A DNA stretch of 59,157 bases, taken from contig JAFGRH010000043.1 in NCBI GenBank assembly GCA_016935265.1, positions 1 to 59,157 on the forward strand, given 5' to 3'. Source of the stretch: Candidatus Woesearchaeota archaeon (GTDB taxonomy: Archaea > Nanobdellota > Nanobdellia > Woesearchaeales > UBA10216). This document shows, in pieces, positions 44,180 to 44,879 of the stretch. The notes below the pieces were generated by a model. The model had not been told where the DNA came from. It was given only the letters and a program-made list of their open reading frames with translations, and searched no databases. The translations under genes and the position numbers were made by a program. Position 1 is the first letter of the stretch, and every line of letters starts with the position of its first letter.

Positions 44180-44879
44180 TTTTCCACCTCTCCAAAATCG
44201 CTTAGGTTTTTCTGGTTCTTGCCGTTAACAAGTTCCTTATACGGAGCCCAGGTCTTCCTGAAGATCTCAGGATGCTTTTCAAAGTTTTCCTTCATAAATT
44301 TTATGGTAAGCGGGTCTGTAAGGTAGCCTGAGCCGAAGTCTCCGTACTTTTTCTTGAGCTTCTCAACCTCATCTTCTCTCGTTACCTTTGCAAGTATCGA
44401 AGCTGCAGAGCACTCCACGTGGTTTACGTCTGCCTTGTGCTCGACGACAGCCTTTATCTTCTTGTTATCAAGCAAGTCCATTAGGTAAGCCTTGTACTTA
44501 ACCACATTGTTGCTCGGGCTGTCTATGACAACGCGTTCAGGCTTCAGCCCGTTTATTATCTGCGCAGACTTGTGCGCCTCAAGCCAGTTAAGGTTAAGCT
44601 TTTTCGAGTTCAGCGCCTCGTCAACTTCCCAGGGCTCTATTATTATGATGCTGTACTCCTTAGCCATCAAAACAATCTTCTTGAAGAGCTCCTTTCTCTT
44701 GCTGTGCGCTAAAAGCTTGGAGTCCTTTACGCCCATCTTCTTAAGCTCATGCAGCTTGGATTCCTCTATCAGGATTCCTGCCATTACCATGGGGCCGATG
44801 ACGGGGCCTTTAGGAGAGCTACAGAGAACTACTTGTTCTGAAACTCACTTCCTGCCTCATCAATGCCGCAAACTAGCAT
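44176..44879 (-). CDS. rnhB: Ribonuclease HII, interrupted by a 38-nt BHB intron. Exon 1 is 44879..44848 and exon 2 is 44809..44176.
   Basis: The ORF track shows only the 204-aa 3' part, which starts inside the conserved N-terminus (MVMAGI). Upstream, in another frame, ATG 44879 encodes MLVCGIDEAG followed by a stop. Removing 44810-44847 joins the frames and yields MLVCGIDEAGRGPVIGPMVMAGI. That contains GIDEAGRGP, the RNase HII catalytic motif I recall. Spliced length is 666 nt (221 aa). Confidence 0.8.
44810..44847 (-). other. Bulge-helix-bulge (BHB) intron within the rnhB mRNA.
   Basis: On the RNA strand the central 4-bp helix is AGGA (44853-44850) paired with UCCU (44815-44812). It is flanked by the 3-nt bulges AGU (44849-44847) and AAA (44811-44809). 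The intron-internal helix is GAGUU (44846-44842) paired with AGCUC (44820-44816), topped by the hairpin AGAAC-AAGUA-GUUCU. Cutting after the second bulge nucleotide on both strands gives the in-frame junction AG|A (Arg). Confidence 0.65.

Follow-up and report, generated by a model that had tools for sequence, protein, structure and literature searches.

The window analysed here, a stretch of 59,157 nucleotides (nt) from Candidatus Woesearchaeota archaeon (GenBank assembly GCA_016935265.1, contig JAFGRH010000043.1), carries on its minus strand an rnhB gene, which encodes RNase HII, and the reading frame of this gene is broken by 38 nt within the codons of its catalytic motif. A preliminary description of this DNA, drawn from the sequence alone, had proposed that these 38 nt are an intron of the bulge-helix-bulge (BHB) type. 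Our analysis of the window and of related genomes makes it highly likely that positions 44847..44810 (minus strand) are an archaeal BHB intron within the rnhB coding sequence of a Woesearchaeota-type DPANN archaeon.

The rnhB locus and its predicted spliced product

Read on the minus strand, rnhB begins with the ATG at 44879 and continues as CTA GTT TGC GGC ATT GAT GAG GCA GGA AGT GAG TTT CAG AAC AAG TAG, which means that the unspliced frame encodes MLVCGIDEAGSEFQNK and then stops (MLVCGIDEAG, SEFQNK, TAG). The long rnhB open reading frame (ORF; 44790..44176, 204 aa) lies in a different frame, and the reading upstream of it is ..SPKGPVIGPMVMAGI. This arrangement had been stated in the preliminary description and was confirmed on the minus-strand reading. 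Deletion of the 38 nt results in a 666-nt ORF of 221 aa with the motif DEAGRGPVIGP, in which AG and A are joined to form AGA, the Arg codon of DEAGRGP; at the predicted spliced junction, GCAGGAAG is followed directly by AGGCCCC. When the deletion is moved by one base, Lys or Ser replaces the conserved Arg, and only the cut made by the BHB rule, which falls between the second and third nucleotides of a bulge (PMC2738675), yields Arg. Both the restored frame and the Arg codon had been predicted from this rule. The intron interrupts the catalytic motif at a distance of 32 nt from the start codon and contains no ORF and no intron-encoded endonuclease.

The spliced protein matched the Pfam profile RNase_HII (PF01351; E 2e-44) over profile positions 1-197 of 199, the TIGR00729 profile with 200.7 bits (cutoff 123.3) and the RNase HII of Pyrococcus horikoshii (PDB 1uax; E 1e-44) over residues 1-211. 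The last alignment is ungapped from residue 1, where MKVAGVDEAGRGPVIGP in the window stands against MLVCGIDEAGRGPVIGP in 1uax. A full-length RNase HII match arises only with the 38 nt removed, and the matches to PF01351 and TIGR00729 bear out the active-site motif that the preliminary description had given. All four catalytic residues of the DEDD set (D7, E8, D107 and D138 in window numbering) are present once the RNA is spliced. D7 and E8 are encoded by exon 1, and the 204-aa unspliced ORF has neither, as had been pointed out. Self-matches aside, the closest homologue is 70-71% identical to the window protein. The public gene call for this rnhB begins at the internal Met at 44790 (P0001, 204 aa). 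A TATA-like box lies upstream of exon 1 (Table 1), and such boxes stand at an equal distance from the start in intron-bearing and intron-less relatives, which suggests that the transcript probably starts at or near exon 1 and not at the internal Met. A second intact rnhB had been named as a point that would count against an intron; no second rnhB was found within the window.

When positions 44870..44795 were folded with RNAfold, both the minimum-energy and the centroid fold formed the hBHBh' motif. The AGGA/UCCU central helix, the AGU bulge and the GAGUU/AGCUC stem with its hairpin, all described previously, are present in the minimum-energy fold, and the interval 44809-44853 given for the motif coincides exactly with the span that opens with the 5' strand of the central helix and closes with the 3' bulge. 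The description of two 3-nt bulges held for AGU; the 3' bulge AAA is drawn in this fold as four nucleotides (AAAG), and with a bulge of 3 nt, a C-G pair forms and a G-G mismatch comes next. Loose BHB motifs occur at the chance rate, with 850 in the window and 781-823 (~806) in shuffled sequence. One chance BHB-like motif would fuse two tandem genes of EamA-family transporters (298 aa each; 8227..9123 and 9161..10057, plus strand), which indicates that the motif alone is unspecific. The probability of a BHB motif at one given site and length is ~7e-5. Because protein homology independently fixes both the length of the removal (38 nt) and its offset, the coincidence with a BHB motif is significant.

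Further BHB introns in coding sequences of the window were considered and rejected, as the candidates that would fuse ORFs are adjacent unrelated genes by Pfam (for example, ABC substrate-binding with Cache, and ThiF with methyltransferase). This window-wide scan found no second convincing BHB-interrupted coding gene. The preliminary description had also referred to seven tRNA introns nearby that follow the same cutting rule. That claim was not reproduced: no tRNA was detected in the 59-kb window by ARAGORN with and without intron mode, by Rfam at gathering and E-value thresholds or by a T-loop pattern, and an Rfam search of the larger gaps (1-1100, 6700-8300 and 22780-23600) likewise found none.

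Table 1. Positions of the interrupted rnhB gene and of the elements of its predicted BHB motif
Feature	Positions	Strand	Remarks
TATA-like box aaaattttaaaac	44901..44913	-	centred ~26 nt upstream of exon-1 ATG
rnhB exon 1	44848..44879	-	ATG + 29 nt; MLVCGIDEAG and first two bases of Arg codon (AG)
Outer exon-exon helix h, 5' strand GGC	44854..44856	-	continues as UGAUG 44862..44858
Central helix H, 5' strand AGGA	44850..44853	-	third base of Ala codon and Gly codon; pairs with UCCU
5' bulge AGU	44847..44849	-	predicted cut 44848/44847
38-nt BHB intron (very probable)	44810..44847	-	U GAGUUUCAGAACAAGUAGUUCUCUGUAGCUC UCCU AA
Intron stem h', 5' strand GAGUU	44842..44846	-	pairs with AGCUC; 5 bp, apical hairpin
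In-frame TAG in intron	44829..44831	-	unspliced translation stops after 16 aa
Intron stem h', 3' strand AGCUC	44816..44820	-	pairs with GAGUU
Central helix H, 3' strand UCCU	44812..44815	-	in intron; pairs with AGGA, 4 bp
3' bulge AAA	44809..44811	-	predicted cut 44810/44809
Outer helix h, 3' strand	44799..44807	-	GCC (44807..44805), one unpaired C, CGUCA (44803..44799); Gly-Pro-Val-Ile codons
rnhB exon 2	44176..44809	-	third base of Arg codon to stop codon 44178..44176

Same-site inserts and covariation in related genomes

Related rnhB genes were taken from the loci of the closest homologues, from GTDB species representatives, from metagenomes and from one later context look-up. The closest homologues all come from metagenome-assembled genomes (MAGs) of Woesearchaeota / Nanoarchaeia; most are intact at 216-222 aa, and in a minority the protein is truncated at MVMAG or its N-terminus is aberrant. 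We found 14 further distinct DPANN loci, mostly from Woesearchaeota, that carry an insert of 27-45 nt at the identical codon position (L002, L003, L004, L005, L014, L019, L022, L026, L033, L038, L067, L072, L096 and L166 in our numbering; L023 is identical to L022, and the two were counted once). Among 80 GTDB representatives, 70 genes were uninterrupted and 10 interrupted (9 of them distinct, as L022 = L023), and ~88% of relatives have no insert. Groundwater MAGs (for example, JACPIG01, JACPTF01 and JACPBX01) are among the carriers of the insert. The metagenome matches listed were mostly distant homologues and provided one new intron locus, L096. Locus L116 was excluded from the statistics, as the 5' region of its rnhB is directly duplicated (755..1481), which is most likely an assembly artefact.

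All 14 further loci splice by the one rule to intact ORFs of 216-306 aa. No exon of an intron-bearing locus contains an additional frameshift or stop, and the DEDD residues are kept in all 13 other interrupted loci of the protein alignment. The comparison with related genomes suggested in the preliminary description has therefore turned up same-site inserts and no decay. The re-formed codon always encodes Arg, mostly as AG plus A, with CG plus U in L003 and CG plus A in L033. Exon 1 with a start codon of its own is recognisable in 14 of the 15 loci, where it reads MxLxCGIDEAG or nearly so, and the contig of the remaining one, L005, ends inside exon 1. The 3-4-3 BHB register is present in all 15. 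Each of the 15 introns also contains a stop in the exon-1 frame, for which the shuffle expectation per intron is 0.33-0.67, which indicates that unspliced RNA would never give the full-length protein, even where intron length is a multiple of three. The G+C content of the introns averages 35%, compared with 40-50% in the 2-kb segments of the window. Furthermore, the gene order rnhB, small protein, BatA/VWA is conserved in related loci (also L001, L004 and L005), which supports the orthology of rnhB. The public calls found for these loci are all truncated or mis-started. Some Woesearchaeota RNase HII proteins have a C-terminal extension of ~70-80 aa with a faint DUF3378 (PF11858) signal, and four intron-bearing genes are of this long type (L033, L067, L072 and L166; 274-306 aa).

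Pair counts were made on a fixed-register alignment of the 14 loci. The 5' strand of the central helix H comprises the third base of the Ala (or Ser) codon and the Gly codon, and its 3' strand comprises the four intron bases that precede the 3' bulge. The pairing, which is AGGA/UCCU in the window, takes the forms AGGC/GCCU, CGGC/GCCG, AGGG/CCCU, CGGA/UCCG, GGGC/GUCU, AGGU/GCCU and UGGC/GCCA elsewhere, as well as AGGU/ACCC with one mismatch in L026. Across the loci, pairing in H reaches 98% of cells, and compensatory changes are seen at two of the four pairs, one occurring as AU (6), CG (3), UA (3) and GU (1) and the other as CG (7), AU (3), GC (2), UA (1) and UG (1). Both synonymous exon positions of H thereby covary with the intron strand. 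In the h' stem, all six scored pairs are compensatory, and the total of pairs with changes on both sides is nine. None of 500 shuffles reached the observed pairing, covariation score or number of pair types, and when partners were slid by 1-3 columns, pairing fell from 88.5% to 28-46% of cells. RNAalifold applied to the unmodified natural sequences returned the structure ((((...(((((...))))))))), with 7 of 9 pairs compensatory. The covariation in the 14 further loci settles the matter against chance: the BHB structure is kept by selection.

Codon choice in the exons follows the same pattern. The outer helix forms 6.7 of 8 pairs in intron-bearing genes versus 5.4 of 8 in intron-less relatives (p = 0.001). 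The synonymous codons GAG (Glu) and GGC (Gly after Arg) occur together in 9/14 intron-bearing genes versus 7/71 intron-less genes (p = 4e-5).

Splicing pathway, rival explanations and intron turnover

From these sequence comparisons, we strongly infer that the insert is spliced, and a pathway can be proposed. Transcription of rnhB would probably begin from the TATA-like box, at its distance of ~26 nt from the exon-1 ATG. Folding and covariation show that the pre-mRNA adopts the canonical hBHBh' structure, in which the Ala and Gly codons of DEAG pair with the intron strand and the D-E-A codons with the G-P-V-I codons. By analogy with the established pathway, the endonuclease EndA would then cut both 3-nt bulges behind their second nucleotide, and a ligase of the RtcB type would presumably join AG to A, which would create the Arg codon and, as homology suggests, the intact 221-aa enzyme. 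RNA that remained unspliced would give either a 16-aa peptide or an N-terminally truncated protein that lacks Asp7 and Glu8. Because neither product has a complete active site, synthesis of active RNase HII appears to depend on splicing. The strict 3-4-3 motif suggests that endonuclease types of strict specificity should be able to cleave it. An EndA of the alpha4 type with an L3 loop, which is linked to more disrupted tRNA genes, has been reported from several DPANN lineages (PMC5829648).

Several observations weigh against an intron that is spliced in this way. The stability of the window fold is modest (z = -1.4), with 14 of 200 shuffles folding equally well in RNAfold, and the minimum-energy folds of L002, L003 and L022 differ from the BHB. 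The codon-choice statistics are uncorrected for shared ancestry, as is the product of the stop-codon expectations, which is 4e-5 if the loci are independent. When 10 of the spliced proteins were looked up by exact match among ~15 billion public proteins, none was present, which means that no spliced cDNA or metatranscript contig was found by this route. One MAG, JACPIH01 (NC_groundwater_435), contains both the uninterrupted L009 and the intron-bearing L023, which are 90% identical in protein; L022, identical to L023, comes from another MAG, and a mixed bin or two alleles are possible. The presence of both copies in JACPIH01 suggests that an intact second rnhB could exist elsewhere in the genome from which the window derives. 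Finally, EndA and RtcB were absent from the 59-kb window in Pfam scans; to our knowledge, EndA is universal in Archaea.

Some of these points would also be expected if rnhB were a pseudogene, frameshifted and inactivated by a 38-nt insertion whose BHB-like fold is coincidental. Loose BHB motifs are frequent by chance (850 versus ~806), the fold is not exceptional (z only -1.4), the public gene calls are truncated (P0001) and most relatives have no insert. However, 15 independent lineages keep an insert at exactly one codon, exon 1 and its start codon are conserved, the exons are free of further frameshifts and stops, the spliced ORFs are all intact with DEDD kept wherever checked, and compensatory changes maintain the helices, which together leave the pseudogene very improbable. 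We attach a similarly small probability to recoding, in which ribosomes would either skip the insert by bypassing or hopping, as they do in phage T4 gene 60, or shift frame, with no splicing of the RNA. In its favour, only a short stretch close to the 5' end would have to be skipped, the take-off region is soon followed by a stop codon, which is also the case in gene 60, and the cbf5 introns were themselves once taken for frameshift sites (PMC2738675). Yet the inserts range over 27-45 nt in all three phases, matched take-off and landing codons are lacking, and neither the conserved 3-4-3 geometry nor the covariation between exon and intron strands would be expected of a bypass signal. An artefact of assembly or sequencing, or a chimeric contig, is the least credible of these accounts and hardly worth entertaining. 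The window is a metagenome-type contig, and the unrelated locus L116 does have a duplication artefact in rnhB, but the same-site inserts were recovered independently in different projects and by different assemblers (NCBI MAGs, Logan, ENA and JGI), and they differ in sequence while agreeing in structure. A spliced BHB intron is thus the explanation that we retain.

The distribution of this intron among relatives is patchy. A neighbour-joining tree built only from exon 2 requires 13 changes to account for the 13 tips that bear the intron, and random placement averages 12.3. Four protein pairs that are 84-93% identical (L022/L013, L019/L009, L002/L007 and L005/L017) are nonetheless unlike in intron presence. 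Loci L019 and L022 are 89% identical at the nucleotide level in exon 2 and 49% in the intron; for L014 and L019, which both use a rare Ser codon (DESG) in exon 1, the corresponding values are 60% and 74%; and for L004 and L067 they are 60% and 75%. Within one tight clade, intron-bearing genes read GAT GAG ... AGA/CGT and their intron-less sisters GAC GAA ... CGC. A distribution as patchy as random, together with intron similarity that does not track gene similarity, hints at lateral transfer or fast turnover. The intron has probably been gained and lost quickly, by recombination between alleles that carry the flanking exon codons. The pattern fits exchange of the intron with its flanking exon by recombination, and a combination of rapid turnover with selection acting on the outer helix would fit it as well.

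Two accounts of the origin of this pattern were weighed, and we hold both below even chances. According to one, which is a serious though minority possibility, the spliced intron is old, vertically inherited and lost many times by precise deletion, and it is neither mobile nor recently exchanged. The identical site in lineages that are only 50-60% identical in protein (L096, L067 and L004), intron types with common features (GAG..CUC and UUA..UAA stems) and the lack of an intron-encoded endonuclease agree with such an origin; the exon-2 tree, in which changes are as many as under random placement, the 84-93% identical pairs that differ in intron presence, and the discordant identities of L019/L022 and L014/L019 do not. 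According to the other, which we put forward tentatively and consider rather unlikely, the ORF-less BHB intron is an actively exchanged element that repeatedly enters or is swapped at the DEAGRG site of rnhB across DPANN, with the flanking codons co-converted, and, through the in-frame stop and the place of the intron near the 5' end, RNase HII synthesis would be strictly dependent on EndA and RtcB activity. For a homing-type intron one would expect a homing endonuclease that it encodes or is linked to, together with a patchy distribution and co-converted flanking exons; the rnhB intron is patchy and flanking synonymous codons track it, but it has no ORF. If this second account is true, archaeal mRNA would harbour a mobile intron defined by its structure, which might also act as a splicing-level switch on an enzyme of DNA repair and replication.

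Neighbouring genes and known systems

Divergently upstream of rnhB lies a free-standing, double-motif LAGLIDADG-like gene (44883..45728, plus strand; likely true start ATG 45159). It matches PF14528 with 19.6 bits, which is below the cutoff, has a weak match to the intein endonuclease PI-PfuI (1dq3) and belongs to a conserved DPANN family of ~185-200 aa (123 matches, 37-65% identity). In 6 of the 8 contexts examined, a family member is found upstream of rnhB at a distance of 0.3-2.2 kb irrespective of the intron, a conserved neighbourhood which indicates that the gene is not specifically linked to the intron; 'collaborative homing' by this neighbour was rejected as a specific link. In L166/L167, a second LAGLIDADG_3-like gene (1237..2280, minus strand; 347 aa) ends directly upstream of rnhB exon 1 on the same strand, and Endonuclease V lies just downstream of rnhB. 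Downstream of rnhB in the window (36503..43865, minus strand) are a small zinc-finger (zf-FCS/TRASH) protein and a MoxR AAA+ / DUF58 / VWA / BatA cluster. Elsewhere in the window, residues 101-155 of a 165-aa ORF (3289..3786, plus strand) match positions 159-212 of 214 of the RNase P p30 profile, below the cutoff; this ORF may encode an Rpp30 of strongly reduced size, or its N-terminus may have been called wrongly. An argininosuccinate-lyase-like gene (Lyase_1; 20121..21296, minus strand) matches ASL_C2 at positions 3-25 of 69 only and appears to end early, 22 nt from the next gene, an aspartate/ornithine carbamoyltransferase.

Work on the intron of cbf5, the closest precedent, is reportedly due also to Watanabe (2002) and Yoshinari (2006), beside Yokobori (2009). 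In Crenarchaeota, cbf5, which encodes a pseudouridine synthase, carries a BHB intron inside its coding sequence (PMC2738675). A 2020 study lists cbf5 as the only coding-sequence example and adds a Haloferax intron in a 5' untranslated region (PMC7714728), and a 2025 endonuclease paper cites only the cbf5 work for introns of protein-coding genes (PMC12397907). The view taken in the preliminary description, that BHB introns in coding genes are very rare with cbf5 as the classic case, agrees with this literature (PMC2738675, PMC7714728). The full-text literature searched yielded no description of an intron in rnhB or of BHB introns in protein genes of DPANN, and on that literature rnhB looks like the second protein-coding gene known to need BHB splicing, after cbf5.

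Like the cbf5 intron, the rnhB intron is a short BHB intron without an ORF inside protein-coding sequence, its predicted cuts between the second and third bulge nucleotides restore the frame, it is patchy among related species, and gene callers annotate the result as a truncation or frameshift. In contrast, cbf5 introns are crenarchaeal (TACK), and many have relaxed motifs that are tied to a heteromeric (alpha-beta)2 endonuclease, whereas all 15 rnhB introns have the strict 3-4-3 hBHBh' motif, lie in DPANN and split a catalytic motif 32 nt from the start codon. Splicing of cbf5 has been demonstrated experimentally, whereas that of rnhB is deduced by comparison. A second case, in another superphylum and with a strict motif, would mean that splicing of protein genes by the tRNA machinery is not a crenarchaeal oddity of relaxed heteromeric endonucleases. 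The intron (38 nt, near the start codon) is a compact and testable substrate, and its patchy distribution offers a system in which gain and loss of BHB introns can be studied. Annotation pipelines miss such genes, and inventories of DPANN metabolism and repair may wrongly score genes as broken.

BHB introns are able to spread, by transposition of tRNA introns in Thermoproteales and by LAGLIDADG-driven homing of rRNA introns, and this gives rise to patchy distributions. The usual sites of homing elements are the most conserved motifs of essential genes. The rnhB intron likewise sits in a conserved motif, but it has no endonuclease ORF, and what points to mobility is comparative, namely discordant similarities and co-varying flanking codons. 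With the BHB introns of archaeal tRNA and rRNA it has in common the motif, the predicted cut positions and the presumed enzymes (EndA and RtcB). Unlike them, its host RNA is an mRNA with no tRNA scaffold, in which one strand of each flanking helix also encodes protein and covariation is confined to synonymous codon positions, and whereas many rRNA introns encode a LAGLIDADG gene, the rnhB intron does not.

In Haloferax volcanii, the splicing endonuclease has a comparable substrate in an mRNA close to the 5' end of the transcript, namely a BHB intron in the 5' untranslated region of HVO_1309, the removal of which is apparently needed for efficient expression (PMC7714728). That intron lies in an untranslated leader and interrupts no codons, whereas the rnhB intron must be removed precisely for the protein to be made. 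A further parallel is the IRE1-dependent splicing of HAC1/XBP1 mRNA in eukaryotes (PMC13149111). IRE1 and its stem-loop motif are unrelated to the BHB system, and XBP1 splicing is a regulated stress response, but there too a protein endonuclease cuts out a small, structure-defined intron (26 nt in XBP1) without the spliceosome, a tRNA ligase (RtcB in animals) seals the RNA, and the resulting change of frame switches on the active protein.

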